Of a DNA stretch of 32,000 bases, positions 6,763 to 32,000 are shown one piece after another. The position numbers were made by a program, and so were the translations under genes. Origin of the DNA: Candidatus Saccharimonadota bacterium (GTDB taxonomy: Bacteria; Patescibacteriota; Saccharimonadia; Saccharimonadales; Saccharimonadaceae); contig DIRZ01000002.1 of assembly GCA_002421785.1 (NCBI GenBank), forward strand, positions 210,001 through 242,000, given 5' to 3'. The notes under the pieces are model-generated. The model saw nothing but the letters and a program-made list of their open reading frames with translations, searched no databases and had not been told where the DNA came from. Each line of letters starts with the position of its first letter. Position 1 is the stretch's first letter.

Positions 6763-6771
6763 GAATCCCTA

Positions 6772-11923: not shown

Positions 11924-11972
11924 TTTTACTCCTTTGGCTATCCCTTTATTATACCGTATACTAAGGGGAGTT

Positions 11973-15098: not shown

Positions 15099-15366
15099 AT
15101 CCTCGCTATTATACCCTTTGTAGGGGTTTTATACAATACTTCCTTGCTTCTCGTGCAAAATTATATTGTACTACGTCGATTTATCCACACTTCGGTGTGT
15201 TTTATCCACAGATTAACAGGGGCGGGATCGTTTTGTGGATAAGTCGCACCCCGGTTTAACGTGCTGAGCCGGGTAAAAAATCCACAACACTTACAAGGTT
15301 GTGGAAAACTCCCCCCTCCCCTATAATTACAGGTAGTTATTAGTTTCGGAGGGAGTTGTAGGTACA
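15099..15366. other. oriC / dnaA promoter region with a DnaA-box cluster
   Basis: Perfect TTATCCACA boxes lie at 15181-15189 and 15202-15210, and a perfect inverted TGTGGATAA lies at 15234-15242. TGTGGAAAA at 15300-15308 has one mismatch and AAATCCACA at 15278-15286 has two. These last two form an inverted pair (TCCACAAC...GTTGTGGA). An AT-rich stretch spans 15120-15180. The position between rpmH and dnaA is the classic one. Confidence 0.85.
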
Positions 15367-16743: not shown

Positions 16744-17018
16744 TATGCTCGCTACCTGTGTACAATCTGTGAAAAACCTTGGGATGAGTCAGCGTATAAC
16801 CAGTGCATGGCAATCCACAGTAATCGTCGCTACTCTACCTAAAGCCACTATGCTGTGGGTAAAACACTTATTTATCGGTGCTCTATCCCCCATTTCATCC
16901 CCCCAGTATTCCACAGGAAATTTCGCCTTTCCACCCCTGATTGAACACTATTTGTACCCAGTTTCCACAGCCCCTATAACTAGTACCACGAATTAAAAAA
17001 GGAGAATAAATAATAATT
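16744..17018. other. Long dnaA-dnaN intergenic region with degenerate DnaA boxes and a terminal AT-rich tract (possible second oriC module/DUE)
   Basis: TGTGGGTAA at 16854-16862 has one mismatch. Three TCCACAG-containing sites lie near 16812, 16907 and 16961, each with two mismatches. The AT-rich tract 'gaattaaaaaaggagaataaataataatt' lies at 16990-17018. Confidence 0.45.
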
Positions 17019-18119
17019 ATGGAACTCTCAGTAACTCAAGAAAATCTGGCTCGTGCGCTCTCGGCAGTCAGTCGCGTGGCAAGTACCAAAGCAGGTTTAC
17101 CAATACTTGGCAACATCCTCTTGCGCACAGAAGGCAATCGACTTTTGGTCGCGGCAACCAACCTTGAAATCGCGTCAACCTACTACATTGGTGCAAAAAT
17201 CGTAAAACAAGGAGCAATCACCCTTCCCGCTCGCCTGGTTAGCGAATTTGTCAGTAGCCTTCCAAAGGGCACGGTAGAGTTATCGACAAAGGGCGCTCAT
17301 ATTACCCTGAGCTCGGGAACCTACCAATCGGTAATTAACGGCGTGGAAGCTGATGACTTCCCTGAGCTGCCATCAATCAACGAAGACGAAGCAGTAAAGT
17401 ATACCATTGCAACCGCTGACTTCAAGCAAGCACTGTCGCAAACAATTATCACGAGTAGTAGCGACTCTACCCGCCCCGTACTGACCGGCGTGTACTGGCA
17501 CTCGGTTGATGGTGCGCTGTACCTAGCAGCCACCGATGGCTACCGGTTGTCTGAGCGCCGGCTTGTCGAAAGCAAGAGCCAGATTGCTGCCATCGTACCG
17601 ACGTCGAGTCTTCAGGAGGTGCTGCGCACGCTCACCGATACCATCGACGAAGTTGAGGTGTTGTTTGACGACACCCAGGTACGATTCCGCGTAGGGGAAG
17701 CCGAGGTCACAAGTCGATTGATTGATGGCAACTACCCAGACTATCGCCAGTTGATTCCAAAAGAATCAGAAACGGTGATTACGCTGAACGCCAGCGAATT
17801 TACTCGAGTCGTTAAAATCGCAGGTTTGTTCGCCCGCGAGTCTGGCGGCAGTATTACCCTTACTGCAGACGCTGAAAAACAAGAACTCAGTATTCATTCC
17901 ATCGCTTCTGAACAGGGCGAGAATACGAGTAGCGCGCCGGCGACAATTACGAATGCTGGCCAAGTGACACTTAACTCACGCTACCTGAGCGAAGCACTTG
18001 GCGTGCTCGATGGTGACACGATTACGTTTCGATTTAGTGGCAAGTTATCACCTACCGTCCTGACGGCAAGCGAAAAAGCCCCCGACTACATGCATATCAT
18101 TATGCCATTAAAGAGTTAG
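17019..18119 (+). CDS. dnaN: DNA polymerase III beta sliding clamp
   Basis: The 366 aa protein begins 'LARALSAVSRVASTKAGLPILGNILL', contains 'TDGYRL' and ends 'MPLKS'. It sits between dnaA and recF. Confidence 0.96.
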   Translation: MELSVTQENLARALSAVSRVASTKAGLPILGNILLRTEGNRLLVAATNLEIASTYYIGAKIVKQGAITLPARLVSEFVSSLPKGTVELSTKGAHITLSSGTYQSVINGVEADDFPELPSINEDEAVKYTIATADFKQALSQTIITSSSDSTRPVLTGVYWHSVDGALYLAATDGYRLSERRLVESKSQIAAIVPTSSLQEVLRTLTDTIDEVEVLFDDTQVRFRVGEAEVTSRLIDGNYPDYRQLIPKESETVITLNASEFTRVVKIAGLFARESGGSITLTADAEKQELSIHSIASEQGENTSSAPATITNAGQVTLNSRYLSEALGVLDGDTITFRFSGKLSPTVLTASEKAPDYMHIIMPLKS

Positions 18120-18120
18120 T

Positions 18121-19170
18121 ATGCACGTCACAGCGCTTCACGTGCGGCAGTTTCGCAATCACAAAGAATACCGATGTCGGCTTGCCGCAACGGTTAATGT
18201 GATATACGGCAGCAACGGAAGTGGCAAGACCTCGCTCCTAGAGGCTGTATGCCTTGCCTATAAGGGTACGTCGTTTCGCGGTCACGATAAAGATATGGTT
18301 CACCGTGGAAGTGAATGGTATCGGGTATCGATGAGTGATACGTCGAATATCGACCGCGTGATTACGTTCGATAACAGGGGCGAACGAGCGCGCAAGCAGT
18401 GGACGGTTGATAGTAAGAACACCGCACGATTACCGCAGAAGTTCCGCTATCCGGTGATACTCTTCACTCCTGACGACCTCCGCCTGATTGACGGTTCACC
18501 AGCTCGTCGCCGTAAATATCTGGATGATATATTGTCGCAACTAAACCCTGCCTACCACACTGCTCTTCGCCGTTACGAGCGCGCGCTCGTGCAGCGCAAT
18601 CGGCTACTTAAAACACGTGACGTTAGCGGTGACCAGCTATTTCCCTGGAATGTTATTTTGAGCGAGTCGGGATCGATGGTAATCTCCACTCGTCGGCAGT
18701 TTGTGAAAACGGTAAATGACTCTATTACTCAAAAATACCAGCAGATTGCGGGTGTAGCGGACGAGGACGAAGTGTCTGTCGAGTATACCGCCAAGGATAC
18801 CTCAGCCCACGCTTTGCTATCGCATTACGAAGATTGTTTTGAGCGTGACAGATTGCAGGGGTACACGACAGCGGGTCCCCATAGGCACGATATTCAGGTG
18901 AGCCTGCGTGGTACGCCGGCAGAAAATCACGCTTCGCGCGGTGAAGTGCGAACAATTATTTTGGCTCTGAAGTATATTGAAGCAGATATGATTGCGGCTC
19001 AGTTTGGTACGTCGCCGCTTATATTGCTCGACGATGTGTTTGGTGAACTGGACAGTACGCGCCAGCAGCACCTTATTGAAACGTTTAATAATCAACAAAT
19101 TATCATTACCTCAACCCATCCGATTGAAGGCATAGATTTTGCTCATCAAATCCGCTTAGCGGAGGGATAG
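18121..19170 (+). CDS. recF: DNA replication and repair protein RecF
   Basis: 'LHVRQFRNH', Walker A 'GSNGSGKTSLLEAV', signature-like 'ASRGEVRTIILALK' and Walker B 'LILLDDVFGELD' are present. The gene starts 1 nt after the dnaN stop. Confidence 0.95.
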   Translation: MHVTALHVRQFRNHKEYRCRLAATVNVIYGSNGSGKTSLLEAVCLAYKGTSFRGHDKDMVHRGSEWYRVSMSDTSNIDRVITFDNRGERARKQWTVDSKNTARLPQKFRYPVILFTPDDLRLIDGSPARRRKYLDDILSQLNPAYHTALRRYERALVQRNRLLKTRDVSGDQLFPWNVILSESGSMVISTRRQFVKTVNDSITQKYQQIAGVADEDEVSVEYTAKDTSAHALLSHYEDCFERDRLQGYTTAGPHRHDIQVSLRGTPAENHASRGEVRTIILALKYIEADMIAAQFGTSPLILLDDVFGELDSTRQQHLIETFNNQQIIITSTHPIEGIDFAHQIRLAEG

Positions 19171-19785
19171 TTCGTTGACGCTCGTCAGGAGCTCACGAGA
19201 AACGGTCGGCGTGTTATCGATGGTGAGGACGATTCGAGGAGCCCCAACAACCTGCCACTGACTATTTACTTTGTGAAGAATGGCGCGGTAGTACCCCTCG
19301 GGATTGCTTGTATCCATGCCGACGGGCGTGAGGATAATACCCGCCCATTCGCCACGCTCAAATAGTGCGAGGTTGTTAACTTCGAATCCGTCGATAACGC
19401 GTGGGTATTTTTGTAGGAGCGCACCCTGTACTGCGCCAAGTTCGGTGGTTGCAAGCTCGCCAAGCTTATCTGTGGAATAGTCTGGTTTTACGGTTAACGC
19501 TATATCGCCCGCTACTACAAAGGGTATTTGAACGTTTGACACGCCATCCCCACTAGGAACGTAGTAGTAGGCTCCTTCTTTGAGGCGGATTGATGAGTCG
19601 TCCGGGGTAAGGGTCTTCAGGCTTGGCATTGCTTCGTCGCTATCTTCGCCAGAGTGAATACTTATGGATTCTACACTTTGGTCGAAAGTGAAGCTGGCGG
19701 TGCGATATGACAGGAGTTCTTGAGCGACAAAATACCCAACAGTCGCGAGAATAAGGATGATAATCGGGGCTATAAAACGTTTCAT
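19156..19785 (-). CDS. Bitopic membrane protein (N-terminal anchor + ~180 aa extracytoplasmic beta-rich domain), last gene of the T4SS-like operon
   Basis: The N-terminus 'MKRFIAPIIILILATVGYFVA' is a single hydrophobic helix. The ATG overlaps the upstream stop as ATGA. The 3' end overlaps the convergent recF 3' end by 15 nt. Confidence 0.7.
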   Translation of the reverse strand: MKRFIAPIIILILATVGYFVAQELLSYRTASFTFDQSVESISIHSGEDSDEAMPSLKTLTPDDSSIRLKEGAYYYVPSGDGVSNVQIPFVVAGDIALTVKPDYSTDKLGELATTELGAVQGALLQKYPRVIDGFEVNNLALFERGEWAGIILTPVGMDTSNPEGYYRAILHKVNSQWQVVGAPRIVLTIDNTPTVSRELLTSVNELSLR

Positions 19786-20405
19786 ACGAATGGATTGCTT
19801 TCATTGATGAAGTTTATTTTGTAATCAACCGGGTTGTACCCCCAGTTTGTGATTTGCGTTACTGCTTCTGTTCGATATACGGCCGGCGCGTCGATAGTGA
19901 CGATAATTGAGTCACCAGTAGGGTCGGCGGGATCGGCGCGATAACCAATAGTGAACAACATGTTTGTATAGGGTAGCTGTTTGGTAATCGGATTTTTTTC
20001 AATGAATGCAGCGCCATTTTCTTCGGCATTAATCCCGGCTACGACTTCAATTGCCGAGTATTCGCCAGTTATCTTATTGTAAAGCTCTGTCGCTTCGGCT
20101 GTTTCGGGCGTTAGCCCGGCGACGAGTGCGGTTTGTGTGCCATCGGTTCGCACATCCAGCTCACCGGTAATAGTGCGAAATCCAGTGTATGATACTCGGT
20201 AAGTATGTTTACCGGGCGTAAGTAGCACCTCTTTCTCCTTTGTGACTTTCCCGTTTATCTCTACGCGTGAACTTGCTGGTGCTACTGCCACGGTGATACG
20301 CTGTTTACCGCTATTTTGCACTTGTGTGTAAACGACATAGCCAATCATTGCTAGGACGATAACGAGAAATCCGATGATGCCGATACGAATGAGTTTACTT
20401 GTCAT
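19782..20405 (-). CDS. Bitopic membrane protein with a PEGA-like beta domain
   Basis: A transmembrane helix 'IRIGIIGFLVIVLAMIGYVVY' is followed by 'ITVAVAPASSRVEINGKV...LLTPGKHTYRVSYTGFRTITGELDV'. That segment follows the PEGA-domain pattern. Confidence 0.7.
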   Translation of the reverse strand: MTSKLIRIGIIGFLVIVLAMIGYVVYTQVQNSGKQRITVAVAPASSRVEINGKVTKEKEVLLTPGKHTYRVSYTGFRTITGELDVRTDGTQTALVAGLTPETAEATELYNKITGEYSAIEVVAGINAEENGAAFIEKNPITKQLPYTNMLFTIGYRADPADPTGDSIIVTIDAPAVYRTEAVTQITNWGYNPVDYKINFINESNPFV

Positions 20406-20416
20406 ATATTAACCAC

Positions 20417-22441
20417 TTAACCCTTCTTTCTATACCATGTTGTGTTGCTTGCGGTAATACTTTCGCTTCCCGCCATCGGTGCGCGCTGGCACAAGGAGGC
20501 GGATGCAATTTTACTACCAAACCCAGGAATGTCCCCTACATAAATGAATGTGTGACCGGGAAGCATGGCTACGTCACCGGGACGCAGAGTGCCGGTGTCA
20601 ATCACATTACCCCTTCCAAGATTCTCCCAATTATTATCAAGCCAAGCCTTTTGGGTTGGGGTTGGGCCACCTTTTCCACTGTGGTTGTATGTGGGGTCCC
20701 AGCCACTATCGGTGACGAGGCGCGTTACAAACCCGCCACAATCGGCACCATCATTTTCTACCGTTACTCCTTTTATCGAGCGGCAGTATGCGATTGTTGC
20801 ACCGACGTATTCGCCAAGTTTTTGTGCCTCTGCAACAGCCTTCACATACGCAGGCATTGACTTGGTATATGGTTTTTTATGATAGGTTGGCCACGCATAC
20901 GCAAGGGTTGTTGCGCTTAGGTCGCCGCCCGAGAAGGTTGTTTCGAAATCTCCGCAGCCACCAGTAGTCGGGTCGTTGTCGACACCCGTTCCAGATGGAT
21001 TCGCATCCTGGATTCCCTTCACAATACCATCAGTGTACTGCTGCAGCTGCTTTTCCGAGAGCTTCGTGCTGCCGTGTGCAAATTCGTTATATGACCAAGG
21101 AACGGTATCGGCAAACAGTGAGATGAGAGGAATATTGCCCTTTGAGAATATCCCGTCACGTCCAAATGATGCGGTTTGTTGGGTGCCACTGGCATCGTCA
21201 CCGACAGAGCGACCCTCTACTGCGGCGCGCGCTTTGATAATTGCCGCATTATATTTCGCACTCTTTTCGGCAGTTGCTGTGTTACTGAAGACTGCCTTCC
21301 GGTCACCGTACTGACGATACGCACCGACACGTTGCGCCCAACCCTGATTGACATCTTTATCTGAGTGGAGGCTTACGCCGAGGACTGCTTTGGCGGCAAT
21401 AGCAGCTTCGGCTTTGGTGCGAAACTTAATTTGCTGGGTGTTGGTGGTTCGGGAGAGGACGACAGTGTACCCAACCTTTTCAAGCTCTGTCTTTACGCGG
21501 TTGGCGACGATGAGCATTTGCTCGGTTTCTGGCGTGTTGTAGCTTTCCGATGTTTTCAAGCCTGTTTTCTCGTCGATGTACGGGCTAATCGCCCCACCAT
21601 GGCCTGGGTCAATGAACACGGTTCCCTTGCTGGTTGCAGAAATCGTTGACACGAGTGTCGATGTTTCTGTGCTTGGTGCTGTGGCGACTGGGGTGGTTGT
21701 GGTGGCGCCAGATTTCATCATTTCGTCATATATCTTTTGCCCAAACCCAGCACGTAATGCCGCGTGAGCATCACTCTGGTCGGCGGGTCGCTCAAAGCTA
21801 CGCAACCATATGTCGGAAGCCTGACGAATGGACGTTGCGTTGTTAATTGCTTGCCATTCTGTCATTCCCGCGGGGCCAACACCGCTTCGTACTTTTCTTG
21901 TGGTGCTTTCTTGGTAGAGGAAGTCGAGCTCAAATGCAAGAAACTTGTCATTTACGGTTACGTCAACTCCGTCTGGTACGTAGCCGTTCGATGATTTTGT
22001 CGCTTTACCATATTGGGGCACGTAGTACTGCGAGAATACATCAGACATGCCCTCTCTCATTTTGTCGACAATCTGCGTACGTCGACTCCCTGTCCACTGT
22101 ACAATGCCATAGCCTCCCGAGGGCCAGGACTGACTATCTTCTTGTCGGAAGGGGCTGAATCCGCTCTCGACCTGGATATTTCCCAAAATACCCGCTGCTT
22201 GCTGATTCGTGAGGCCTTTCCCGACGAGATAGTTCCACATTTTAGCTATATTACCGTCCCCGGTTACGGAAGTGCCGCTCGCGGACATCGTAAGGCACGA
22301 AACGGCGTTTTTGTCATAATACAGAATGTCATTTGACGAGTAAAAATCGAAATCAGTCTCTTCGGCAAAAGCAGGAGTTGCATTTGATACGACAAGAACA
22401 AGCACACTTACAGCTATAGCAAACCTTTTTATATGACGCAT
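20417..22441 (-). CDS. Secreted three-domain peptidoglycan hydrolase (phage-tail-lysozyme-like + Amidase_3-like + NlpC/P60-like)
   Basis: The signal peptide reads 'MRHIKRFAIAVSVLVLVVSNATPAFA'. 'AAGILGNIQVESGFSP...GYGIVQWTGSRR' is the lysozyme-like domain. After a Thr/Ser linker, 'VFIDPGHGG...VSLHSD' is the amidase_3-like domain. The C-terminal 'DCGGFVTRLV...GDVAMLPGHTFIYVG' has a Cys/His NlpC/P60-like arrangement. A GGGGGAGGGGG RBS is present. Confidence 0.85.
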   Translation of the reverse strand: MRHIKRFAIAVSVLVLVVSNATPAFAEETDFDFYSSNDILYYDKNAVSCLTMSASGTSVTGDGNIAKMWNYLVGKGLTNQQAAGILGNIQVESGFSPFRQEDSQSWPSGGYGIVQWTGSRRTQIVDKMREGMSDVFSQYYVPQYGKATKSSNGYVPDGVDVTVNDKFLAFELDFLYQESTTRKVRSGVGPAGMTEWQAINNATSIRQASDIWLRSFERPADQSDAHAALRAGFGQKIYDEMMKSGATTTTPVATAPSTETSTLVSTISATSKGTVFIDPGHGGAISPYIDEKTGLKTSESYNTPETEQMLIVANRVKTELEKVGYTVVLSRTTNTQQIKFRTKAEAAIAAKAVLGVSLHSDKDVNQGWAQRVGAYRQYGDRKAVFSNTATAEKSAKYNAAIIKARAAVEGRSVGDDASGTQQTASFGRDGIFSKGNIPLISLFADTVPWSYNEFAHGSTKLSEKQLQQYTDGIVKGIQDANPSGTGVDNDPTTGGCGDFETTFSGGDLSATTLAYAWPTYHKKPYTKSMPAYVKAVAEAQKLGEYVGATIAYCRSIKGVTVENDGADCGGFVTRLVTDSGWDPTYNHSGKGGPTPTQKAWLDNNWENLGRGNVIDTGTLRPGDVAMLPGHTFIYVGDIPGFGSKIASASLCQRAPMAGSESITASNTTWYRKKG

Positions 22442-22443
22442 AA

Positions 22444-25392
22444 CTACCCCCTCCCCCTACAGTCGGGCGTTGCTTCAGTTACGAGCAGCCCAAGGTTTGG
22501 CGCCTCGTCCGCAGCAAGGAGTGGGAATATGTCTTGTAGGCATACGCCAGCTCCATCATAGCTAAAGTCCATATGCAGGTGAGGGCCGCAGGAGTTTCCA
22601 ACCTCTCCGAGTGTCATAATTTGCTCACCCGCTACTACGGTGCTTTTTGTCGTTACGTTATCGCCGTGCGCGTATGCGATGAGGACCTTCTTCCCTTGGT
22701 ATTCAGACTCAATCATTAAGCCACCATTATTACCAACATTTGGGTCGCCTGTGCACATGTAGCTTGATCGGCCTAATGGGCGCTTTACTACTTTTCCACT
22801 AAGCATTGCGTAGACGGGGGTGCCCTTTGGAAGTGACAGATCAACAGAATTTTCATTTCCCGTAAACGAGCCCGCTCCGTTATGACCTCTTAGGAACTGA
22901 CTTTCATTTTGATCCCAGAATTTTTTATCAACAGGCCACTTCATTTCACCATTTCCGAGCCCCACGCCAACGGCGGCCAAATCGGGCGCAGCTTGACCTG
23001 TAGTACTTGAGGTATATCCGTTTTCCATAGTATCGTTAACGCGTTGATCGATGTAGTGAACGTACATATCAACGGTTGTTTGTTCTTGGACTGTGAGGCC
23101 TGTCGTTTTGTCGGTAATAAAGCAGCTCTCGCCCATATCTACTGTCGAGTCTTCCCCGGTACTGCCAATCGGCACCTGGCGATCGATACAGTTTTTTACA
23201 AAGTCAATGTACGCCCCGACGGGATCGCCAGATGTTTCGTCAATAAGACCCTGACTGAGGAGTCGCGTGTTAATTGCATTAGGGTCGTCACCTGCGAGCT
23301 CAAGAGGGATGCCGAAGATTGGATTGCAGAAAGGATCGGTGGCAATGCCAATTGCTACGTAGTCAGGATCTTTACATTCCTGGAAGTCTGATTCGTCTGC
23401 GCTTGCCTGCGGGGTGAGGTTCGCGAAGGTAGAACCTACGATACTTGTAGGAATAGATGAAAGTTGAAGAACGGTACTGGGTGTACTTGCAAAAAATGGC
23501 GCAAAGCGACTATAGATACTACCTAGGAACGTATTTGGGTTGCTTGCGTCAAACGGACTGTGGGTCGCCTGGTCAAGTGTGCGGTATTCCTGTGCGATAA
23601 CTTCGGTTTCGCTTGCATAGCGCGCAGCCTGCTTGGCGCGCAGTGGCGCGTTGCCACCACCCTGTGCGAGCTGGGAGTGGAGGTGTCCTGAACCAGACAC
23701 GATAAAGTTCCCTGCCGTTTCACCGACAGTGTTTTTGTCGACTAATCGGCCAGCGATCATATCAGCCAAAAGTGCAGGCAAGAGGAGCTGTGCGGCAAAG
23801 GTGGCTGCAGCGATGCCCGCCTGAACGCCAATTTTTGCAAGGCTGATGGCTTGTCCACCTGGGATGATCCAGAGGAGTACACCCACGACGAATGATGCGC
23901 CCTGGACGAAGAAATTATTGTTGATCTTGCAGGTTGAATCGGCAGTGCGAGTGTTGCCGCCGAGTAACCCGAGGACGGTTGCAAGAACGCCATCTAACTT
24001 ACCGGTTGAGCCTGCACCTACAAGTGCCTGCATGGCGTTTGTGTCGCTCGCTATTCCCTTGTCGCCAAATGCGGTATAGCGGTAGCCAAAGGAGTCGGTC
24101 GCGGCTTTGGTGAGGACAGTCTGTCCGTCGACCTGCGTGCGGTAGGTTTGGGTGAGCATTGTCCCGAGGTAGGATACATCGTCTGCCTTAGCATCACCGG
24201 CTTTTATCATACTGGCGGTTGTCAGGAATATCATGGCAAAACGCGCCATCTGGGCACCTCTAATCACCTTTGCGCCCATAGAAACGGCTTTGAACATACC
24301 ATAGACGGTACAGGCATTATCAATCACCCCGGTTACCTTGATAATGCTGGTTGCGCTTCCAGCCAGATTGCTGAAATCGGCGGCGCCGAGCTCTCGCATG
24401 GCTTTAGATGTTTGCGACTCGGCACCATCGCCGGCCTCACTCGCGGCTTTGTCGAGATCTGACTGTGTTCCGGATTTTTTGTTTTGACACTCCGCATCAC
24501 AGTTCGGGTCATCCGTGACATCAATGCTACCCGTGGAGCGGCCATTTCTTGTATCTTCTTCGATTCGCTTGAGCCTGGTTTCATCGCTAGCACTATCGGC
24601 GTCGGTGAACGGTGCGCGTTTGGAAATGCGTAGCTTGGTAGCGATTTTATTGAACACACTGTCGGTGAAGCCGGCGAATTTAGGGTTAAACCCTTGTTTT
24701 ACCGCAAGGTTGAACCTAGTATTTGTTTTCATTTCGGACACAAAATTTGCCGGTGCGATTGGCTTACCCTCGAACGACATGGAAGTGATTTTGTTTCTGC
24801 CGGTGATGGCGGTTTTTGAGTCAGTCTCCACCTCTATTCCTGCCTTTTTGAAGTTAGCAATTTCTTTGTCGGAGAACGTTGCATATTTACACCGAATTGA
24901 TACTGGTGAACATATGCCCGTAGTGGTATTTTTGATCTTCGCATCAAGAATTTTTTTGGTGCGAATATCCATGGTTGTTAGCTGATAATTGAATTTTTCA
25001 TTAATTTTTTCGGCGAGATTAACGATGAGCAGGCCTGGCCCGCCAAAAAAGCTCGTTACGCCCGCTAAGCCAAGGACAAGGGAGATGATAATACCAACAG
25101 GGCCGCCACTTTTTTTGAGGCTGAATTTTCCACCGCCACGTGACTTACGCCCGGTAACGTTATTCATCCATGACCCCGACGTGCCGTTTTCTTGTTCATC
25201 AACAACGTCCGAGGCTTGCTTCGCACGTTCGATCGCCGCATCTTCGTTGGACGAGTCTGCGGTTTGGTCATAGTTATTTACTATGTCGTTAAAGCTACTT
25301 TTTTCGGCGTCACTGAGTTGCTTGGAATTATTGAAGACATCGTCGTAGTGCTCGTCAATTCGGCTATTGTCGTTTTTTTGCAGCGTTGGCAT
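22444..25392 (-). CDS. Large membrane protein with a C-terminal M23 (LytM-type) peptidase domain
   Basis: The N-terminus is acidic and disordered. Transmembrane segments occur near aa 98-125 and near aa 500-550. The C-terminal 'VDLSLPKGTPVYAMLSGKVV...IAYAHGDN...GPHLHMDF' matches the M23 core motifs. Confidence 0.85.
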   Translation of the reverse strand: MPTLQKNDNSRIDEHYDDVFNNSKQLSDAEKSSFNDIVNNYDQTADSSNEDAAIERAKQASDVVDEQENGTSGSWMNNVTGRKSRGGGKFSLKKSGGPVGIIISLVLGLAGVTSFFGGPGLLIVNLAEKINEKFNYQLTTMDIRTKKILDAKIKNTTTGICSPVSIRCKYATFSDKEIANFKKAGIEVETDSKTAITGRNKITSMSFEGKPIAPANFVSEMKTNTRFNLAVKQGFNPKFAGFTDSVFNKIATKLRISKRAPFTDADSASDETRLKRIEEDTRNGRSTGSIDVTDDPNCDAECQNKKSGTQSDLDKAASEAGDGAESQTSKAMRELGAADFSNLAGSATSIIKVTGVIDNACTVYGMFKAVSMGAKVIRGAQMARFAMIFLTTASMIKAGDAKADDVSYLGTMLTQTYRTQVDGQTVLTKAATDSFGYRYTAFGDKGIASDTNAMQALVGAGSTGKLDGVLATVLGLLGGNTRTADSTCKINNNFFVQGASFVVGVLLWIIPGGQAISLAKIGVQAGIAAATFAAQLLLPALLADMIAGRLVDKNTVGETAGNFIVSGSGHLHSQLAQGGGNAPLRAKQAARYASETEVIAQEYRTLDQATHSPFDASNPNTFLGSIYSRFAPFFASTPSTVLQLSSIPTSIVGSTFANLTPQASADESDFQECKDPDYVAIGIATDPFCNPIFGIPLELAGDDPNAINTRLLSQGLIDETSGDPVGAYIDFVKNCIDRQVPIGSTGEDSTVDMGESCFITDKTTGLTVQEQTTVDMYVHYIDQRVNDTMENGYTSSTTGQAAPDLAAVGVGLGNGEMKWPVDKKFWDQNESQFLRGHNGAGSFTGNENSVDLSLPKGTPVYAMLSGKVVKRPLGRSSYMCTGDPNVGNNGGLMIESEYQGKKVLIAYAHGDNVTTKSTVVAGEQIMTLGEVGNSCGPHLHMDFSYDGAGVCLQDIFPLLAADEAPNLGLLVTEATPDCRGRG

Positions 25393-25394
25393 CG

Positions 25395-27233
25395 CTAGCT
25401 ACCCCCTCCAGAAAGCGGCTGTAGTGGCGTTTGTGGGTTGGTCGTAATGAGCCCCGTTTCGGTTTCGCTGGCGATAATCTGGACATGGACGTGATTCTGG
25501 CCTGCGAAGAACAAGCCCTGACCAACTGGGAAGTTCGATAGGCGCTTGCGCTCTTCTTCGGTAAGCTTGAATACGTCACCCAGCACGTCCACGGCGCTCG
25601 AAGACTGCTTTAATAAGAGCTGCATTGAGGAGTTGGCGACAATTGCTCGTCCCATCTTGCTACCCATAAAGTCTTCAACGTCCTGCGTGATGGTAGTGAG
25701 CCCCAAGAAGTACTTACGTGCGCGCTTAGCGAGGCTGAACAAGAAATTTGCACTGTCATCGTATTTCATGAGTTGCCATGCCTCGTCCACGATGAGCATA
25801 CGCTTGCGCTGGACAGTGCGGGTAATGTTCCAAATGTGGCTGAGTACAATGTACATGGCAACAGGACGAAGTTCGTCTTCGAGGTCACGAATGTTGAACA
25901 CGACCATACTATTGTTGATGTCGATATTGCTCTGCTGGCTAAAGATTCCCGCGAATGTACCACTGGTGTATTTGCGCAGACGTTGCGCGAGCGCTGGACC
26001 TGTTCCGCCCATATGAAGCAGTGTGTCATAGAGGTCGCTAATAGTTGGCGGCATACTGTTGTGAGTCAGTGGGTCGCTCGTGATGCCAGCGCGGGCGTAG
26101 GTGTCGATCAGTCCCTGGTCGAGGTCTGCTTCTTCGGCGGGCGTGAGTGCGGACATCGCTTGCCCGGCTGCAGTCATCTGTGTGCCACCGAGCATAAGGC
26201 GGAGTAGTCCGTGTAGTGTGACAAGGTTGGCGCGGAGGGCGTCGTCAGCTTCTTCGCTATCAATGACTTTCGGTAAGTCGAATGGGTTAATCCGGGTGTC
26301 GCTATTCAGGCTTAGTCGGATATAGCTCCCCCCTACTGCATCGCTCAGTTTCTGATATTCATTTTCGGGGTCGATAATCAGGATGTCCGAACCGGTCATC
26401 ATGCTGCGGAGTGCCTCGAGCTTTACGGTGAACGATTTACCTGCGCCGGACTTTGCGAACACCACCATGTTGGCGTTTTCTAGGCTGAACCGGTCGAAAA
26501 TTACCAGGCCGTTGTTGTGCATATTGATACCATACAGCACGCCCTTTTCCTGGGTTAAGTCGGCGCTCGTGAATGGGAAGCTTGTGCTGATAGCGCCGGT
26601 GTTCATGTTGCGGCGAATTTGCAACTGGTCGGACATTTGTGGGATGGTGCTATTGAGGCCCTGTTCCTGTTGGCTGCTGGCAGTTTTGCTGTATACGAGC
26701 TGCTGGCCGAACAGGGTTTCCAGGCTGTGCTGGACAAACCCAAGTTCTTCCAGGCTGTCTGCGTATACCGTGACGTACAAACCATAGCGGAAGAAGCGCT
26801 CCGCGCCAACCTGGAGCTGATCACGAAGCTCCTCGGCATCAGCCAGTGCGGCTTCACGCGCGGGGTCGCGAGTTCGGCCCTTTTCGCTACTGATCGACAT
26901 GTCGGCTTCGAGCTGCGTTACCTTTTTGCGAAGGTTATTCAACACGACCTCTGTTTCAACAGGGTAAATAAACATGCTAATGTCGAGCACCTGGTCGATA
27001 TTAATGAGACCACTAAGCCAACCGGTATAGAGTTCACGGGGGTAGCCGTAAATATACATGGTGCGGCCGTATTTAGTGCCGATGCGGAAGTGACTGCTGT
27101 GAATTTCGAGGCTACTTGGTGCGATGAGATCGCGAAGTGTCGTCATGCCCTTTAGGAACGCCTGCTCTACTTCTGCCTGTTCGCGGGCGCGCTGTTCGGC
27201 GGCAAGACCGACGGCGTCAAGTTTCTTCGCCAT
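25395..27233 (-). CDS. virB4: VirB4/TraE/ConE-family type IV secretion ATPase
   Basis: 'YGRTMYIYGYPRELYTGWLSGLINID..LDISMFIYP' is the Gram-positive VirB4 N-domain pattern. Walker A 'FAKSGAGKSFTVK' and Walker B 'RMLIVDEAWQLM' are present, followed by 'GLTTITQDVEDF'. Confidence 0.9.
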   Translation of the reverse strand: MAKKLDAVGLAAEQRAREQAEVEQAFLKGMTTLRDLIAPSSLEIHSSHFRIGTKYGRTMYIYGYPRELYTGWLSGLINIDQVLDISMFIYPVETEVVLNNLRKKVTQLEADMSISSEKGRTRDPAREAALADAEELRDQLQVGAERFFRYGLYVTVYADSLEELGFVQHSLETLFGQQLVYSKTASSQQEQGLNSTIPQMSDQLQIRRNMNTGAISTSFPFTSADLTQEKGVLYGINMHNNGLVIFDRFSLENANMVVFAKSGAGKSFTVKLEALRSMMTGSDILIIDPENEYQKLSDAVGGSYIRLSLNSDTRINPFDLPKVIDSEEADDALRANLVTLHGLLRLMLGGTQMTAAGQAMSALTPAEEADLDQGLIDTYARAGITSDPLTHNSMPPTISDLYDTLLHMGGTGPALAQRLRKYTSGTFAGIFSQQSNIDINNSMVVFNIRDLEDELRPVAMYIVLSHIWNITRTVQRKRMLIVDEAWQLMKYDDSANFLFSLAKRARKYFLGLTTITQDVEDFMGSKMGRAIVANSSMQLLLKQSSSAVDVLGDVFKLTEEERKRLSNFPVGQGLFFAGQNHVHVQIIASETETGLITTNPQTPLQPLSGGGS

Positions 27234-28120
27234 TATTGCGCTCCTCCTTGTGGCTCTGGTTGAGTGACATCACCCTGCCCTTTGCGCACATACATACTTG
27301 TGACGTTATCGAAATTCCCGAGCGGTTCCCGGACGGCAGTGTCGGGGTTATAGATGTTATAGTACAACTCACCGAGCTCTTTTGTGGTCAGCTGGACTGC
27401 CTGTACGCCCACTTGGTTGAGGCCGCTCACAACCGAGTCGACGCGGTTCTTGATCTCTTCCTTAGCTTTTTCGTATGTCGCCTTGTCAATCTTGGTTATA
27501 GTGTTGGCTTTAGCGCCACCACCGAATATTTTTCCGAAGAAGCCTTTGCCTTGGTCAACTACTGTGTTGGCGTCGCCTGCGGGGAAAAACGGTACGACCA
27601 CAAAGAAGCTTTTATCCATAATGTTTGCTTCTTGGGACAAGACATCAATAAACTGGATGTAGTCATCCATAAGTACGTTTAGGAGCATGTTGTCCTGATT
27701 GCGGCGAATTTCTTCCAGCCGGTCTAGGTACGGGCCGATATCGACGCGCTGCGAGCGGATGAATATTTGAATGGGAAAATATAGTGCGTTAAGGAAGTTT
27801 TGGTAGCTAAATTCCACACCCTCGCGTTCACGCGAGCTCATCAGGTCGAAGTTGATGGATTTACAGGCGATGACAGCACGGAAGCTGCCGTCGGCCATAA
27901 TAATCATGCCATCGCGTAGCTCGGAAAGGAGCAGGCTGTTCTGGGTAGATACGCCGCGCTTTTCGGGGGTTGACGAAGGATTGCTAGCAGCTTGACCGGC
28001 AGGCGCCACACCAGAACCCATGGGGGGCTGAAACTGCTGCTCGGGGCCAGGAAAAGCACCAGCGGGGGCGGCTGGTTGTTGCGGTATCTGATTGGTTGGC
28101 TGCTGATTATTTGGCGGCAC
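27233..28120 (-). CDS. Hypothetical protein with a P/Q-rich N-terminus and a core resembling a VirB4/TraC N-terminal domain, with no ATPase motifs
   Basis: The GTG start has an AAGGGGAG RBS 6 nt upstream. The stop overlaps the virB4 ATG as TAATG. 'LSELRDGMIIMADGSFRAVIACKSINFDLMSSREREGVEFSYQNFLNALYFPIQIFIRSQRVDIGPYL' follows the same pattern as T4SS ATPase N-domains. No Walker motifs are present. Confidence 0.65.
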   Translation of the reverse strand: MPPNNQQPTNQIPQQPAAPAGAFPGPEQQFQPPMGSGVAPAGQAASNPSSTPEKRGVSTQNSLLLSELRDGMIIMADGSFRAVIACKSINFDLMSSREREGVEFSYQNFLNALYFPIQIFIRSQRVDIGPYLDRLEEIRRNQDNMLLNVLMDDYIQFIDVLSQEANIMDKSFFVVVPFFPAGDANTVVDQGKGFFGKIFGGGAKANTITKIDKATYEKAKEEIKNRVDSVVSGLNQVGVQAVQLTTKELGELYYNIYNPDTAVREPLGNFDNVTSMYVRKGQGDVTQPEPQGGAQ

Positions 28121-28154
28121 TTCCCACTCCCCTTTTAGTTAACTATTACCCACA

Positions 28155-29156
28155 CTAGCGAAGCGAGATAATCACTTCCTCGCCGTCATCTTCGTCATGA
28201 CGACGCTGAATTCGGCTTGCCTCACGCGCAATTGTCTCGATAGATAAATCAGTATTACTTGCAAGATTGATTATATCAGGTGACAGGGCTGTTTCGCTAG
28301 TGGTTGGCGGTTGTTTTGCGGGTTCTGGTTGCGGAGGCGAGGGCTGTACTGGAGGCAGTGGTGCTGGCTGTGGACGGGGTTGTACTAGCTGGCCACTCGC
28401 GCTCAAAGGATTAATGACAGTTTGGTGGATTTCTGTGGGATATGGATTGAACAGAACCGTCGGGTCGGTGGTAGTGGTAGCTGCAGGTGGCGTGGTATAG
28501 GCAGAATACTGAGCTGCAGTGGTTGGAATTGTGTATTGAGCTGCTGGCGGAGTGCTGGGGGTTGGGTTCTGGATGCGGTTCATCATTTCCTGCCTACGGC
28601 GTTGGTCGGCCTGAGTAATCATTGTGTCCAGATTTTGTGCAATTCCCCCGTTGTCGTCGAGCACGTCTTCGGTTTGGCGCGCGGCAAAGAACGCATCGGT
28701 ATACATGGCATTATCGACAAATGGTTCGGCGGCATGACGAATTGCCCACCCTTGGGTGTCGGCAATGTCGGCCAGGTAACTGAGGCGCCGTTCGGCTTCA
28801 GTTTGTGATATATCCTTTGCCCGCTGCACCTCGACAACCTTCGGTGCGGTGATTTCTACGAGTGATTCGATACCATCAGGAATCCATAGGCGACGACGGG
28901 GTTTGAGGTAGAACGACACAATCGCTGCAAGGTAGATTTCCATTGGCTGATCTTTGCGTAGGGGTAACGCAAGCGCCCCGAAGAACAAAATAATCGGCAT
29001 TGGGATAATAATGAATCCGATAAAGATTTGCGACAGCCCCCAGGCGAGCGCCATCGCCATCGCAACGATAATCAGGTAGACGAACTGGCGAAAACTAAAC
29101 GGGCCAATCAGCTTATCGTCGGCTTCTACATCCTGGGCTACTTTATATACTGCCAT
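28155..29156 (-). CDS. PrgI/VirB3-like membrane protein with a long C-terminal extension
   Basis: 'VAQDVEADDKLIGPFSFRQFVYLIIVAMAMALAWGL' is followed by a second adjacent helix, which is the PrgI/VirB3-like hairpin. A ~250 aa tail follows and includes a Pro/Thr/Gln-rich tract. Confidence 0.7.
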   Translation of the reverse strand: MAVYKVAQDVEADDKLIGPFSFRQFVYLIIVAMAMALAWGLSQIFIGFIIIPMPIILFFGALALPLRKDQPMEIYLAAIVSFYLKPRRRLWIPDGIESLVEITAPKVVEVQRAKDISQTEAERRLSYLADIADTQGWAIRHAAEPFVDNAMYTDAFFAARQTEDVLDDNGGIAQNLDTMITQADQRRRQEMMNRIQNPTPSTPPAAQYTIPTTAAQYSAYTTPPAATTTTDPTVLFNPYPTEIHQTVINPLSASGQLVQPRPQPAPLPPVQPSPPQPEPAKQPPTTSETALSPDIINLASNTDLSIETIAREASRIQRRHDEDDGEEVIISLR

Positions 29157-29184
29157 ACTTTTATAATACTCTACCTATGTGATG

Positions 29185-31626
29185 CTAGGGTGTAGGAGGC
29201 GGCGCGCTAGATGGATGATTCGGATTTTGAGAAGGCGTATTCATATAGCGATGAGTCTCTCCGATATTATCAAATTGTGCCCGGTATGCAGCCGTAACTT
29301 TCCCTTTCAGCGCAGGCGTAGAGTCAACATTGTTGATTGCTCCAGTCAGGTTGTCCATACCCTCGTGGGTAACTAGGCCCGATCCAGCAACGCCCGCAAG
29401 GTACCTTGTCGCACTTTCGCTGTGTACAACATCTTCAGCACCAATACTGCCCGAGTTAATATTCTCAGCAGCAGATGCAGCCAATCCCGCTGCGTCAAGT
29501 GCTCGGCTTTTGCCGTTTTCATCGGTACCCGAAGCCATGATTTTTGCTCCGATCCCCGCGCCGTATATCTTCTGATCGCCTTTTGCATAGACACCCTCTG
29601 AAACACGTTTCTTTAGGCGTTGCGATAGCCCGCCAGATGCTTCGACGACCGCTCGGCGCTCATCAAAACTTCCTTTTGACATGATATGCTCAATGGCTGC
29701 AGCCTGTTCAGCTTCAGACAGTCCGCCACTCTGAAACTGCTTGAGAACATCCGCTGTGCCCTTCTCGCCAAAACCGATGCCCGCCGCTTTGACCTGTTCA
29801 CCAAACTCCGCTTCCTCGAGAGATGCAGCTTGTGTGGCGAGCTTGCCAGAATAATTGCCCCCACCGACCTTACCTAGGACACCCCTGCGTATACTTCCCT
29901 CTCCGATCTTCCGCGCTCTCTTGATATCGCGTTGTTGTTTGCGATATTTCCAAGCATCTTGGACAGGTGCGGTGCGACGGTTTGCGGTATTCTTGGCGGC
30001 ACCGCCAACCCGGCCGGTCGCTTTATCTCCCCAGCCTTGCATCTTTGCGCCCATCTTGCCAGTTGCGGCCAGGGCGCCTTTGAGCATTCCGGGCACTACG
30101 AAGAGCGGCAGTGCAGTGGCGCCAAGCGCGACGATCTTCATGAATGGTTCGGATGATGTGGACAGAATTGCTGCAGCCAATGCGCTTGCGCCGAATACCG
30201 CACTAACAACAGGAAATAGCATAAGTAAGCTAAAGAATAGTTTCGACCACTTTTTAAACAACGACTCGGTATTTGGTAACAGATAGGCTACAAACGCGAG
30301 GGGTGCGATGACGATTAACAGCACAATGAGTGCCTGCCTGGCCAGTAGAATAAATGCGATGAGTGCAAGTGCGAAGAATGCCGCAAGGAGAACCGGTACA
30401 GATACGGCAAGTAGAAGTGCCAGAACGGTCCCAATTCCAAGTGCACCGGCGAGGATTTGACCTATTAATTCGGCCCATCCACCAGAATCAGCCTTCGTGG
30501 TAATAGTAATCGAACCCCCAAGCTGGTCGAATATCGCCTTTATGCCGTATCCCGCAATATTACTCAGGTCGACTGCCAGCTGGCATATAAAGAACGAAAT
30601 ATTTACCAAAATGGCGGCAATGATAATTTTTGGTAACATGCGCTTAATGCCATAGTTACTAATCCCAGCACTTGTTACCTGAGAATAGATAATAATCAAG
30701 AAGGCGATCACAAACATCACGTTGGCATAGTTCTTAAACACGTCCCAAGCTTTGTATGTTGTCGAATCTCTAGTGAATAGCTCCGGTTTTACTACCAGCG
30801 TTCCCGCAATAAAATCGTATAACCCATCATTTAAGCTGGCGATAAAGTTCATGACAGGACAAACAATCCAGCCAATCGAGTCAACATTACACTGTGACTC
30901 TTTGGTCGCGTCCGCTCCCACGACTGGTTTAGCGTCAAGCTTTCCGGTTGATATCTGGCTGGCACAGCTTAATACATTGGGCGTGGCGGTGTCTAAGTTT
31001 TCTTCGCCAGCTACGCAGTTTTTCCATGCTTCAGAACACTGGTCGCTAGTGAGCATACTGCCAGCAGTAGTTACTTTTGCACACGCCTGTATTGCTTCGC
31101 ATCGCGCCTTGAGGTAGGTGTCGGTCATCGCGGAGCAGTCTTGTTTGGTTATGTCTGTCGCGCTAATATCGAGTGGCTTAGTGGCGGCCGCGGTGTTCGC
31201 GATTGTGACGGTACCCTTGAATGCGCTGGGTGAACAATATTTTACTTCGCGCTCGCCAGTACTCGCCAGGCGATCGCTTAGTGTTCCCTTTCCGGCGTTG
31301 CTTGCATCTACTGTAAGGGTGACACTATATGTACAAATAACGTCAATCGTGTCGGTTATACCCGAGTCCCCCATTAATCGGCTATTGCTGAACGTCGGTC
31401 GACTGCCACTCAGTACAAGGGTACCTCCGTCGCCGGCAACATCTTCTCCGCCAGGCCCAAAATAGCTGTATTGAATGAGAATTTGACTACTGTTTGCCCA
31501 CTTGAGTGACATATTTGACACGGCGAACGCAGAAGGAATGAGTGGGCCGATGATATTCAACAACGAGCTTAATGCAAGGACAGTAATCGTCGTAAATAGC
31601 CCAACCCGTTTTTTTCCTATTAACAT
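29185..31626 (-). CDS. VirB6/TrbL-like polytopic membrane protein with a Cys-rich ectodomain and a long hydrophilic C-terminal domain
   Basis: It has a signal/anchor 'MLIGKKRVGLFTTITVLALSSLL', a ~230 aa ectodomain with 10 Cys, at least 6 hydrophobic helices (aa ~300-540) and a ~270 aa Gly/Ala/Lys-rich tail. The ATG at 31626 is preferred to the GTG at 31641, because a CATAAT -10-like box lies 6 nt upstream. Confidence 0.75.
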   Translation of the reverse strand: MLIGKKRVGLFTTITVLALSSLLNIIGPLIPSAFAVSNMSLKWANSSQILIQYSYFGPGGEDVAGDGGTLVLSGSRPTFSNSRLMGDSGITDTIDVICTYSVTLTVDASNAGKGTLSDRLASTGEREVKYCSPSAFKGTVTIANTAAATKPLDISATDITKQDCSAMTDTYLKARCEAIQACAKVTTAGSMLTSDQCSEAWKNCVAGEENLDTATPNVLSCASQISTGKLDAKPVVGADATKESQCNVDSIGWIVCPVMNFIASLNDGLYDFIAGTLVVKPELFTRDSTTYKAWDVFKNYANVMFVIAFLIIIYSQVTSAGISNYGIKRMLPKIIIAAILVNISFFICQLAVDLSNIAGYGIKAIFDQLGGSITITTKADSGGWAELIGQILAGALGIGTVLALLLAVSVPVLLAAFFALALIAFILLARQALIVLLIVIAPLAFVAYLLPNTESLFKKWSKLFFSLLMLFPVVSAVFGASALAAAILSTSSEPFMKIVALGATALPLFVVPGMLKGALAATGKMGAKMQGWGDKATGRVGGAAKNTANRRTAPVQDAWKYRKQQRDIKRARKIGEGSIRRGVLGKVGGGNYSGKLATQAASLEEAEFGEQVKAAGIGFGEKGTADVLKQFQSGGLSEAEQAAAIEHIMSKGSFDERRAVVEASGGLSQRLKKRVSEGVYAKGDQKIYGAGIGAKIMASGTDENGKSRALDAAGLAASAAENINSGSIGAEDVVHSESATRYLAGVAGSGLVTHEGMDNLTGAINNVDSTPALKGKVTAAYRAQFDNIGETHRYMNTPSQNPNHPSSAPPPTP

Positions 31627-31675
31627 ATAGCTATTATGCACAATTGCTTACGGTTTGGAAACACTTATGCATAAT

Positions 31676-31701
31676 AATAACCCCCGCGAACGAGGGTTAT
31701 T
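31676..31701 (-). terminator. Hairpin (AATAACCC-10 nt loop-GGGTTATT) downstream of the partial upstream gene
   Basis: Eight-bp inverted arms lie at 31676-31683 and 31694-31701. On the minus strand the hairpin is followed by AUUAUUAU. It separates the partial ORF from the VirB6-like gene promoter. Confidence 0.45.
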
Positions 31702-31722
31702 AAAAGGCTGGGACCTACTAAA

Positions 31723-32000
31723 CTATTGATTGAGTAACTGAGCGTCAAGGGTTGTGAACGTATCGAGGTTCCACTTACCATCAACGACGGTTAGTTCTCC
31801 CTGAAACCTAAATAGATTGTTAAAGTCCTTAGGAAGTCCGGCATTCGTTCGCGACTCTGCAACGCCTGGAGACACCGAGCCGGCGTTGTCTGCCATAGTT
31901 ATACCAAAGGCGGTATCAGCTGCGTAGCCTGCGTCGGTAGGTTCTTTGCCATTATCGACGACTGTTTGATCTACCAGCTTAACATCTACAATAATGTCGG
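31723..32000 (-). CDS. 3' end of an unidentified minus-strand CDS running off the window
   Basis: My own translation is open for 92 codons from the window edge to a TAG at 31723-31725. It reads ...DIIVDVKLVDQTVVDNGKEPTDAGYAADTAFGITMADNAGSVSPGVAESRTNAGLPKDFNNLFRFQGELTVVDGKWNLDTFTTLDAQLLNQ*. It is not in the ORF track because no start codon at least 60 aa upstream lies in the window. Confidence 0.5.
   Translation of the reverse strand, partial: DIIVDVKLVDQTVVDNGKEPTDAGYAADTAFGITMADNAGSVSPGVAESRTNAGLPKDFNNLFRFQGELTVVDGKWNLDTFTTLDAQLLNQ

Follow-up and report, generated by a model that had tools for sequence, protein, structure and literature searches.

A Saccharibacteria gene cluster beside recF is probably a core chromosomal, non-conjugative type IV secretion system

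Organization of the locus

The stretch of DNA analysed here (the window) comprises 32,000 nucleotides from a Candidatus Saccharimonadota bacterium (assembly GCA_002421785.1, contig DIRZ01000002.1, positions 210,001 to 242,000 of the forward strand) and carries, next to recF, a tightly packed gene cluster related to the type IV secretion systems (T4SSs) of Gram-positive conjugative elements. An original prediction, made from the sequence alone, had described this cluster as eight co-directional minus-strand genes at positions 19156-31641. All eight open reading frames (ORFs) were recovered at the predicted coordinates and strand by an ORF call on the window, and the intergenic junctions, read from the VirB6-like gene to the last gene, were reproduced as 28, 34, -1, 2, 2, 11 and -4 nt. 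In this order the genes encode a VirB6/TrbL-like protein (818 or 813 aa), a PrgI/VirB3-like protein (333 aa), a TrsD-like protein (295 aa), a VirB4 ATPase (612 aa), a membrane-anchored M23 protein (982 aa), a secreted peptidoglycan hydrolase (674 aa) and two single-pass proteins (207 and 209 aa). GGAGG Shine-Dalgarno-like motifs are found 5' of the 295, 612, 982 and 674 aa genes, as would be expected if translation of the operon is coupled. The 3' end of the operon overlaps recF (18121-19170, plus strand; Pfam SMC_N and AAA_23) by 15 nt, about 2.4 kb past the dnaA stop, which agrees with the overlap described earlier; recF is a convergent neighbour and lies outside the machine itself. The G+C content of the cluster is the same as in the rest of the window, with no shift.

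While the eight ORFs are present as predicted, the outer edge of the span at 31641 did not hold, because the system runs upstream past the end of the window. The stretch at 31723-32000 on the minus strand holds the last 91 codons of a lipoprotein gene (307 aa), which starts outside the window. A hairpin of 12 bp, capped by a UUCG tetraloop, separates the lipoprotein gene from the VirB6-like gene at 31675-31702 on the minus strand, with a calculated folding energy of -18.7 kcal/mol (z = -3.07). Weak sigma-70-like promoter matches at 31703-31674 and 31661-31633 overlap this hairpin or lie just downstream of it. The hairpin could be a terminator or attenuator dividing the T4SS locus into two transcription units and, together with the weak promoter-like matches, it suggests that the eight genes may be a separate or attenuated unit inside a larger locus.

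The VirB4 ATPase and its companion proteins

The 612 aa protein (25395-27233, minus strand) was observed to match the NCBIfam profile of CD1110-type VirB4 at 5.9e-111, above the curated cut-off and over profile positions 172-732 of 752, and the solved C-terminal domain of VirB4 (PDB 4ag5) at 1.3e-46. A match to Pfam P-loop_TraG was also obtained and both the Walker A (KSGAGKS) and Walker B (LIVDEAW) motifs are present in the translation. The original prediction had called this protein a VirB4 ATPase and had staked that assignment on a profile match, which is borne out here. Its matches to the CedB/CedD import ATPases are weak and fall far under the cut-off. The nearest 200 homologues are 84-100% identical, and the named records among them are nearly all Saccharibacteria, with a few contigs of metagenome-assembled genomes labelled otherwise.

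The 612 aa protein is without the approximately 170 N-terminal residues of a full-length VirB4. The preceding 295 aa protein (27233-28120, minus strand), whose gene stop overlaps the virB4 start in a TAATG sequence, matches NCBIfam TrsD at 1.5e-6 and gives weak matches to the N-terminal positions of VirB4 profiles, in line with its earlier description as VirB4-N-domain-like. A precomputed public assignment places it in PF26593 (TraC-like), and a PDB sequence search gave nothing useful. From these profile matches, the domain absent from the 612 aa protein is predicted to be supplied by the 295 aa ORF as a free-standing homologue of the VirB4 N-domain. The 295 plus 612 aa split is the known TrsD plus VirB4 arrangement, which the original prediction had not recognised. 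In 79 of 80 related loci a TrsD-like gene immediately precedes virB4, and a frameshifted or pseudogenised VirB4 as the source of the split was therefore rejected.

Upstream of the TrsD-like gene, the 333 aa protein (28155-29156, minus strand) matches Pfam PrgI (PF12666) at 2e-10, above the gathering score, which supports the PrgI/VirB3-like assignment made before. It consists of a PrgI domain with two transmembrane (TM) helices at residues 5-90, followed by a Pro/Thr/Gln-rich extension of about 240 aa, and its position is conserved across 74 related loci. We also noticed that the N-terminus of the TrsD-like protein is Pro/Gln-rich over about 55 residues. Both this N-terminus and the C-terminal extension of the PrgI-like protein look disordered.

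VirB6-like proteins and the locus beyond the window

The first gene of the cluster (29185-31641, minus strand) was predicted to start at GTG 31641 and to encode 818 aa. This start was not upheld: gene calls begin at ATG 31626 (813 aa), the public record holds the 813 aa product and the 818 aa product has no record, so that 31626 is probably the true start. Its hydrophobic segments indicate a signal or anchor at the N-terminus, then an ectodomain of roughly 230 aa, a TM core and, at the end, about 280 aa of cytoplasmic tail. Its VirB6-like nature, as claimed earlier, is supported more by its relatives than by the window copy. The full-length VirB6-like proteins gave no Pfam match and only the isolated core of the 818 aa protein matched TrbL/VirB6, and weakly (0.037-0.043). 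Of 15 orthologous or paralogous cores taken from related genomes, however, 13 do match TrbL (PF04610), the best at 4.5e-7, and precomputed public annotation places both VirB6-like paralogues of the locus in PF19590 (TrbL_3). A PDB sequence search with the 818 aa protein gave nothing useful, and the lone PDB match of a profile built from the VirB6-like cores, to TrwI (the VirB6 of R388), is not significant (E = 1).

The sequence beyond the right edge was obtained from a public contig (L002), which agrees with the window at 100% identity over 16.6 kb and runs on for a further 5.2 kb. This extension, which the original prediction had missed, contains the remainder of the 307 aa lipoprotein gene, a second VirB6-like gene and an array of VirB2-like pilin genes. 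The full translation of the 307 aa protein begins with a twin-arginine-like lipoprotein signal with a lipobox (KRRVAS...GLSAC); no family match was found for it in the profile searches and nothing useful in a PDB sequence search. The next gene upstream encodes a 995 aa paralogue which is 41% identical to the 818 aa protein over a 355-residue membrane core. Past the 995 aa gene, at least four small genes are divergently oriented, where three match PF18895 (T4SS_pilin, VirB2-like) above the Pfam cut-off and a 149 aa gene falls just under it. A metagenome scan with a pilin of the locus found relatives at 56% identity or less. In some species (L024 and L085-L093) the orientation of one or both VirB6-like genes is opposite to that of the remaining operon genes, and this part is therefore structurally less fixed than the PrgI-TrsD-VirB4 core.

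Cell-wall hydrolases and single-pass proteins

The 982 aa protein (22444-25392, minus strand) was predicted to be a membrane M23 protein. This agrees with a Pfam Peptidase_M23 match (1.6e-11) at its C-terminus (residues 847-947) and with hydrophobic stretches resembling TM segments around residues 99-117 and 494-543. Matches to metallo-endopeptidases were also found in PHROGs, where hydrolases were the only matches obtained.

The 674 aa protein (20417-22441, minus strand) carries a signal peptide followed by Pfam Phage_lysozyme2 (1.7e-27) and Amidase_3 (1.3e-10) domains, and its PDB matches are to the phi29 gp13 lysozyme and to amidases. The original prediction had described a secreted hydrolase of three domains, of which the lysozyme and amidase domains are well supported. 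The C-terminal region of about 185 residues gives a weak NlpC/P60 match (E 0.14) and contains the Cys/His motifs DCGGF and GHTFIY; on these grounds the third domain is a probable NlpC/P60-like cysteine peptidase.

The last two genes (207 aa, 19782-20405; 209 aa, 19156-19785, minus strand) were expected to encode bitopic proteins and each product does have one N-terminal hydrophobic helix. The AlphaFold2 model of the 207 aa protein (pLDDT 83.5) contains a TM helix, a PEGA/transthyretin-like beta-sandwich and a small alpha/beta domain. Foldseek matched this model to carboxypeptidase transthyretin-like domains (5e-4), a weak Pfam PEGA match was obtained for the sequence and one homologue carries PF08308, so that the predicted fold is PEGA-like and not NTF2. 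The 209 aa protein, encoded by the last gene of the operon, has very few detectable homologues. Its low-confidence model (pLDDT 61) gave no significant fold match, and a match to TcpC at E 0.33 carries no meaning. No paralogy was detected between the 207 and 209 aa proteins.

Position relative to the replication origin

The plus strand to the left of the operon carries recF, dnaN and dnaA (15367-16743), and the minus strand there carries rnpA, yidC and a Jag-like gene. A cluster of DnaA boxes upstream of dnaA, the probable oriC, occupies 128 nt at 15181-15308 and contains three perfect TTATCCACA boxes and one box with a single mismatch. Over the whole window, 19 matches to the DnaA box were counted against 6.6 expected, and the cumulative GC skew is lowest at about 17-18 kb. 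The boxes and the skew minimum together support the predicted oriC and, with it, the earlier claim that the operon is transcribed head-on to a fork leaving this origin. An ORF of 86-94 aa in the dnaA-dnaN spacer (16712-16996), which runs over the end of dnaA, is present in the public gene call; it carries no family assignment and is maybe spurious.

Synteny and conservation in Saccharibacteria

A scan using one genome per species yielded 566 VirB4 relatives, and the analysis covered the best 80 of them, almost all of which carry the label Saccharibacteria or Saccharimonadales. The gene order was found to be nearly universal: the pilin array, the VirB6-like gene or genes, PrgI, the TrsD-like gene, VirB4, the M23 protein, the hydrolase and the small proteins are followed by recF-dnaN-dnaA on the opposite strand and then by rnpA-yidC. 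Among the 57 loci with at least 9.5 kb of sequence downstream of virB4, dnaN/dnaA was observed downstream in 56 and the arrangement is convergent in all 56. The synteny beside dnaA-dnaN-recF, which the original prediction had proposed to check, is thus conserved in 56 of the 57 relatives with enough flank. The lone genome without dnaN/dnaA within 10 kb of virB4 (L061) keeps the M23 protein but has a CHAP hydrolase in place of the lysozyme/amidase protein, and three AAA_14/DUF4143 ATPase genes (17928-21677) are inserted after its operon.

Identities of the relatives to the window proteins differ widely among the components. VirB4 is the most conserved with a median identity of 88%, followed by DnaA (75%), DnaN and the TrsD-like protein (68% each), PrgI (53%) and RecF (44%). 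The lower end of the scale is formed by the VirB6-like proteins of 818 aa (39%) and 995 aa (38%), the 674 aa hydrolase (36%), the 207 aa protein (27%), the 982 aa M23 protein (26%) and the 209 aa protein (24%). The loci were picked by VirB4 similarity, which brings some bias into the comparison with DnaA, but VirB4 identity exceeds DnaA identity in 48 of the 48 loci in which both are complete (medians 88 and 75%), and the gap is too large and too uniform for selection bias by itself to explain it. VirB4 is also far more conserved than DnaN, RecF, YidC and RnpA.

A secretion ATPase that outstrips DnaA in conservation is unusual, and the locus ATPase is under strong purifying selection. The identities form a gradient in which the cytoplasmic parts (VirB4, TrsD-like and PrgI) are high while the envelope and surface parts lie at 24-39%. 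This suggests that the host-facing components are diversifying, and the pattern would fit an essential machine in which the outer parts keep pace with different hosts.

In one Saccharibacteria subgroup, a Fic/DOC-family protein (L074, 64-1200; a cluster of 4 members) was found several kb upstream of virB4. In other bacteria, Fic proteins serve as T4SS effectors, but they may also belong to toxin-antitoxin systems.

Search for mobility genes

The original prediction had noted the lack of a coupling ATPase, relaxase, integrase, tRNA attachment site, oriT-like repeat and VirB7/9/10 in the operon, and the scans of the window agree. No relaxase, type IV coupling protein (T4CP) or integrase domain was found among the scanned window ORFs with Pfam and NCBIfam profiles, and no VirB7/9/10 in the profile searches of the operon proteins. 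Neither a tRNA nor any Rfam family was detected in the window, and no att-like or otherwise notable direct repeats were found across the 21.8 kb locus.

The flanks were covered by the window itself, the 5.2 kb on the right and the flanks of three relatives, and gave the same outcome. The 5.2 kb same-genome extension contains no relaxase, coupling ATPase, integrase, tRNA or att repeat and is instead occupied by T4SS genes and pilins. In the regions past the pilin array in three related genomes, again without a relaxase, T4CP or integrase, we observed Hsp20 and a ComFC-like phosphoribosyltransferase and then, where the sequence reaches, valyl-tRNA synthetase (ValRS) or a Mur ligase. Furthermore, the 80 related loci contain 553 ORFs of at least 300 aa, where 481 are homologues of proteins of the window or the locus and the remainder form 42 clusters. 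Pfam searches with 10 representatives of these unassigned clusters around virB4 gave no T4CP, relaxase or integrase. Unassigned ORFs with a Walker A motif are few around virB4 in the 80 relatives, and two cluster representatives matched no Pfam family.

Relationship to known systems

The closest described systems are those of other Saccharibacteria. A conserved T4SS region with VirB4, VirB6, PrgI and an array of small secreted proteins was reported across Saccharibacteria by McLean 2020 (PMC7427843), who proposed a role in exchange with the host and compared the TM7x locus with ptx/ptl. Using transposon sequencing, Wang 2023 (PMC10633639) found an 'apparent T4SS (SEML1_0006-0019)' of Southlakia epibionticum ML1 to be essential in co-culture. 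The ML1 system is most like Gram-positive conjugative systems, its pilins are essential and it has no recognisable coupling protein or relaxase (PMC10633639).

The ML1 locus (PMC10633639) begins with dnaA, dnaN, recF (SEML1_0003), a 249 aa protein and a 211 aa PEGA protein. It continues with a lysozyme/cysteine-proteinase hydrolase, a large peptidase protein, a 612 aa VirB4, a 293 aa protein and PrgI, and ends with a 998 aa T4SS protein, a 278 aa NTF2-like protein (TraM, 4ec6), a 1088 aa VirB6, six pilins, Hsp20 and ComFC. All of these listed genes were classed as essential except the NTF2-like protein (SEML1_0012), ComFC (SEML1_0021) and recF (PMC10633639). The NTF2-like (TraM/VirB8-like) domain of SEML1_0012 was assigned by the same authors.

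Order and orientation are alike gene for gene between SEML1_0004-0019 and our locus, and both follow directly after dnaA-dnaN-recF. The counterparts are SEML1_0004 for the 209 aa protein (by position), SEML1_0005 for the 207 aa protein (both PEGA), SEML1_0006 for the 674 aa hydrolase, SEML1_0007 for the M23 protein, SEML1_0008 for VirB4 (612 aa in both), SEML1_0009 for the TrsD-like protein, SEML1_0010 for PrgI and, by position, SEML1_0011 and SEML1_0012 for the 818 aa and 307 aa proteins. The middle domain of the hydrolase is a glucosaminidase in ML1 whereas it is Amidase_3 in the window, and the large peptidase of ML1 is a 'Hedgehog/DD-peptidase' by ECOD whereas the window protein is M23 by Pfam. 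ML1 is a different species, and essentiality was measured in ML1 only.

A survey of 3,035 Patescibacteria genomes (Quinonero-Coronel 2025, PMC12102498) placed a Patescibacteria VirB4 clade within MPF_FATA, with TrsD as its commonest companion. The T4SSs of this clade are without a relaxase, lie near dnaA, dnaN and rnpA and contain PrgI/VirB3, VirB6 and arrays of VirB2-like pilins; the same study located a T4CP of S. epibionticum far from virB4 and classed it as non-essential. The window locus shares all of the clade features and shows no substantive difference, which makes it one more member. A 2025 FEMS review (PMC12857230) describes the system as the first T4SS for which essentiality to the survival of the carrier bacterium was shown, and speculates that the T4SS and its pilus could be a conduit for signals or for uptake.

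The more distant relatives are the Gram-positive MPF_FATA conjugative T4SSs, such as the Trs system of pGO1/pSK41, Prg of pCF10, Tra of pIP501, Con of ICEBs1 and CD1110 of CTn2; this comparison rests on profile names and on PMC12102498. The window locus shares with them a VirB4 of the CD1110 family, TrsD (as in pGO1), PrgI, a VirB6-like channel and multi-domain wall hydrolases, and both are without VirB7/9/10. The predicted parts list of a Gram-positive conjugative T4SS is therefore matched by the VirB4, TrsD, PrgI, VirB6-like and hydrolase profiles. In contrast to these systems, the window locus has no nearby relaxase, coupling ATPase or oriT and occupies a fixed chromosomal position. It also has VirB2-like pilins, which the Gram-positive systems are without, as well as duplicated and extended VirB6-like proteins.

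Bordetella Ptl, Brucella VirB, Helicobacter ComB and archaeal Ced likewise operate without a coupling protein and/or a relaxase. They serve to export proteins or to import DNA. Ced is archaeal, whereas Ptl, VirB and ComB belong to diderms and include VirB7/9/10, and the similarity to the present locus lies in the VirB4 ATPase fold alone.

Functional interpretation

We consider the locus to be, with a probability of about 0.88, a core chromosomal T4SS of Saccharibacteria (Saccharimonadia, Patescibacteria) belonging to an MPF_FATA-derived clade that is no longer conjugative. A FATA-type VirB4, an adjacent TrsD-like gene, PrgI, VirB6-like genes, a pilin array and proximity to dnaA/dnaN are all found together, with no associated relaxase. 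The original prediction had favoured a domesticated core machine over an integrative and conjugative element (ICE), and the fixed position in 56 of 57 relatives and the lack of mobility marks speak for this view. Its guess of an epibiotic, reduced-genome lifestyle was also right, as the organism belongs to the Saccharibacteria/Saccharimonadales.

We infer the architecture, the pilus and the substrate of the machine as follows. The VirB4 ATPase would act with its detached N-domain, the TrsD-like protein, and would dock on PrgI/VirB3 and on two VirB6-like polytopic proteins to make up the membrane channel. The wall would be opened locally by the membrane M23 peptidase and by the secreted lysozyme/amidase/cysteine-peptidase. 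The two fast-evolving single-pass proteins and the lipoprotein may complete the envelope-spanning part, and the divergent VirB2-like pilins would form a surface filament or conduit aimed at the host cell. Taken together, the machine is most likely a non-conjugative translocator that works on contact and exports proteins or signals to the host bacterium. In S. epibionticum, epibiotic growth requires the equivalent genes (PMC10633639).

Several observations weigh against this interpretation or parts of it. The window's own VirB6-like copy matches TrbL weakly and the HxxxD motif of a peptidase is not obvious in the predicted M23 domain of the 982 aa protein. A VirB8-like fold is demonstrated neither by the PEGA-like 207 aa protein nor by the 209 aa model (pLDDT 61). 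The likelier candidate for a VirB8-like (NTF2-fold) component would be the 307 aa lipoprotein, which takes the position of SEML1_0012 (NTF2-like, e4ec6). Orthology with the ML1 genes was inferred from order, length and domain content and not from alignment. A distant T4CP may be encoded elsewhere in the genome, beyond the scanned window and the 5.2 kb extension, and export and import are not distinguishable from sequence.

Import is the serious alternative, though we rate it as unlikely. The T4SS and its VirB2-like pilus would then import DNA, nucleotides or other host molecules as an analogue of ComB or Ced, which agrees with the absence of a relaxase and a coupling protein in the window scans, as in those two systems. 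A ComFC-like gene is conserved just past the pilin array in the relatives and in ML1, but ComFC (SEML1_0021) is non-essential (PMC10633639). The weak similarity of VirB4 to the CedB/CedD import ATPases points in the same direction, but these matches are far below the cut-off and reflect general VirB4 similarity. The host-dependent nutrition of the organism (PMC10633639) would favour uptake and the idea has been raised before (PMC12857230). However, deletion of comEC in S. epibionticum ends competence and not viability whereas the T4SS is essential (PMC12857230), and no import substrate is known. A more specific form, in which a feeding conduit draws host molecules and the invariant head-on placement at oriC couples expression to replication initiation, seems to us quite improbable. 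The feeding-conduit idea itself is already in the literature (PMC12857230).

A purely adhesive role, where the locus is chiefly a pilus-assembly apparatus whose VirB2-like filament holds the epibiont on its host with no translocation, is a lesser alternative and one we doubt somewhat more than import. It could account for the multi-gene, sequence-divergent pilin array attached to the locus, for the essentiality of this array in ML1 (PMC10633639) and for the fast-evolving surface-exposed parts, as expected of structures in contact with a host. Saccharibacteria, however, already adhere by type IV pili (PMC10633639), no pilus of the proposed kind has been seen, and two large VirB6-like channel proteins with an extremely conserved ATPase suggest translocation too.

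An ordinary ICE or its remnant, with a relaxase, coupling protein and integrase just outside the window, could draw on the CD1110/ICE type of the VirB4, on the parts list shared with Gram-positive conjugative T4SSs and on the mere 5.2 kb of same-genome sequence read past the right edge, but this was rejected as highly improbable because 56 of 57 related genomes share the place and orientation beside recF-dnaN-dnaA, DnaA is less conserved than the ATPase, further T4SS genes and pilins instead of mobility genes occupy the next 5.2 kb, three relatives carry Hsp20 and a ComFC-like gene and then ValRS or a Mur ligase past the pilin array, tRNA, att-like repeats and a G+C shift are all missing, and relaxases occur in 103 of 3,035 Patescibacteria genomes and near virB4 in 15 cases (PMC12102498).

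As a core chromosomal T4SS, the window is a clean and well-annotated further example of a published system and no new variant. The gene cluster, its ancestry in monoderm conjugation, the missing relaxase and coupling protein, the proximity to the origin and the essentiality were all published in 2020-2025. The uniform head-on orientation, the conservation of VirB4 above that of DnaA, the conservation gradient and the hairpin that may split the locus are minor additions, as is the lipoprotein nature of the 307 aa protein, the probable VirB8-like component. The T4SS is probably central to the way in which ultrasmall Patescibacteria live on other bacteria.

Additional observations

A public sequence that is 99.92% identical to the window (L001; JGI 3300001594 Draft_10000039) has recF and dnaN each broken in two, and its calls for PrgI and the VirB6-like protein are shortened. 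These are probably assembly frameshifts rather than biology.

Further to the left of the origin region, the window contains glycosyltransferases, a Wzm/Wzt-type ATP-binding cassette (ABC) transporter, sugar-nucleotide enzymes and a succinyl-CoA-ligase-like pair. The surface-glycan cluster occupies 8-7767 and 10040-13067 and encodes GT4 and GT2 glycosyltransferases, a methyltransferase, the ABC transporter (with a Wzt C-terminal domain), GDP-mannose 4,6-dehydratase, epimerases and GtrA. This content implies an ABC-transporter-dependent polysaccharide pathway. Saccharibacteria-type genomes are reported to be without a respiratory chain and many biosynthetic pathways. The succinyl-CoA-ligase-like pair is located at 8109-10021, with ATP-grasp_2/Ligase_CoA domains in one protein and CoA_binding/Ligase_CoA domains in the other, and the local G+C content is slightly raised there (0.54).

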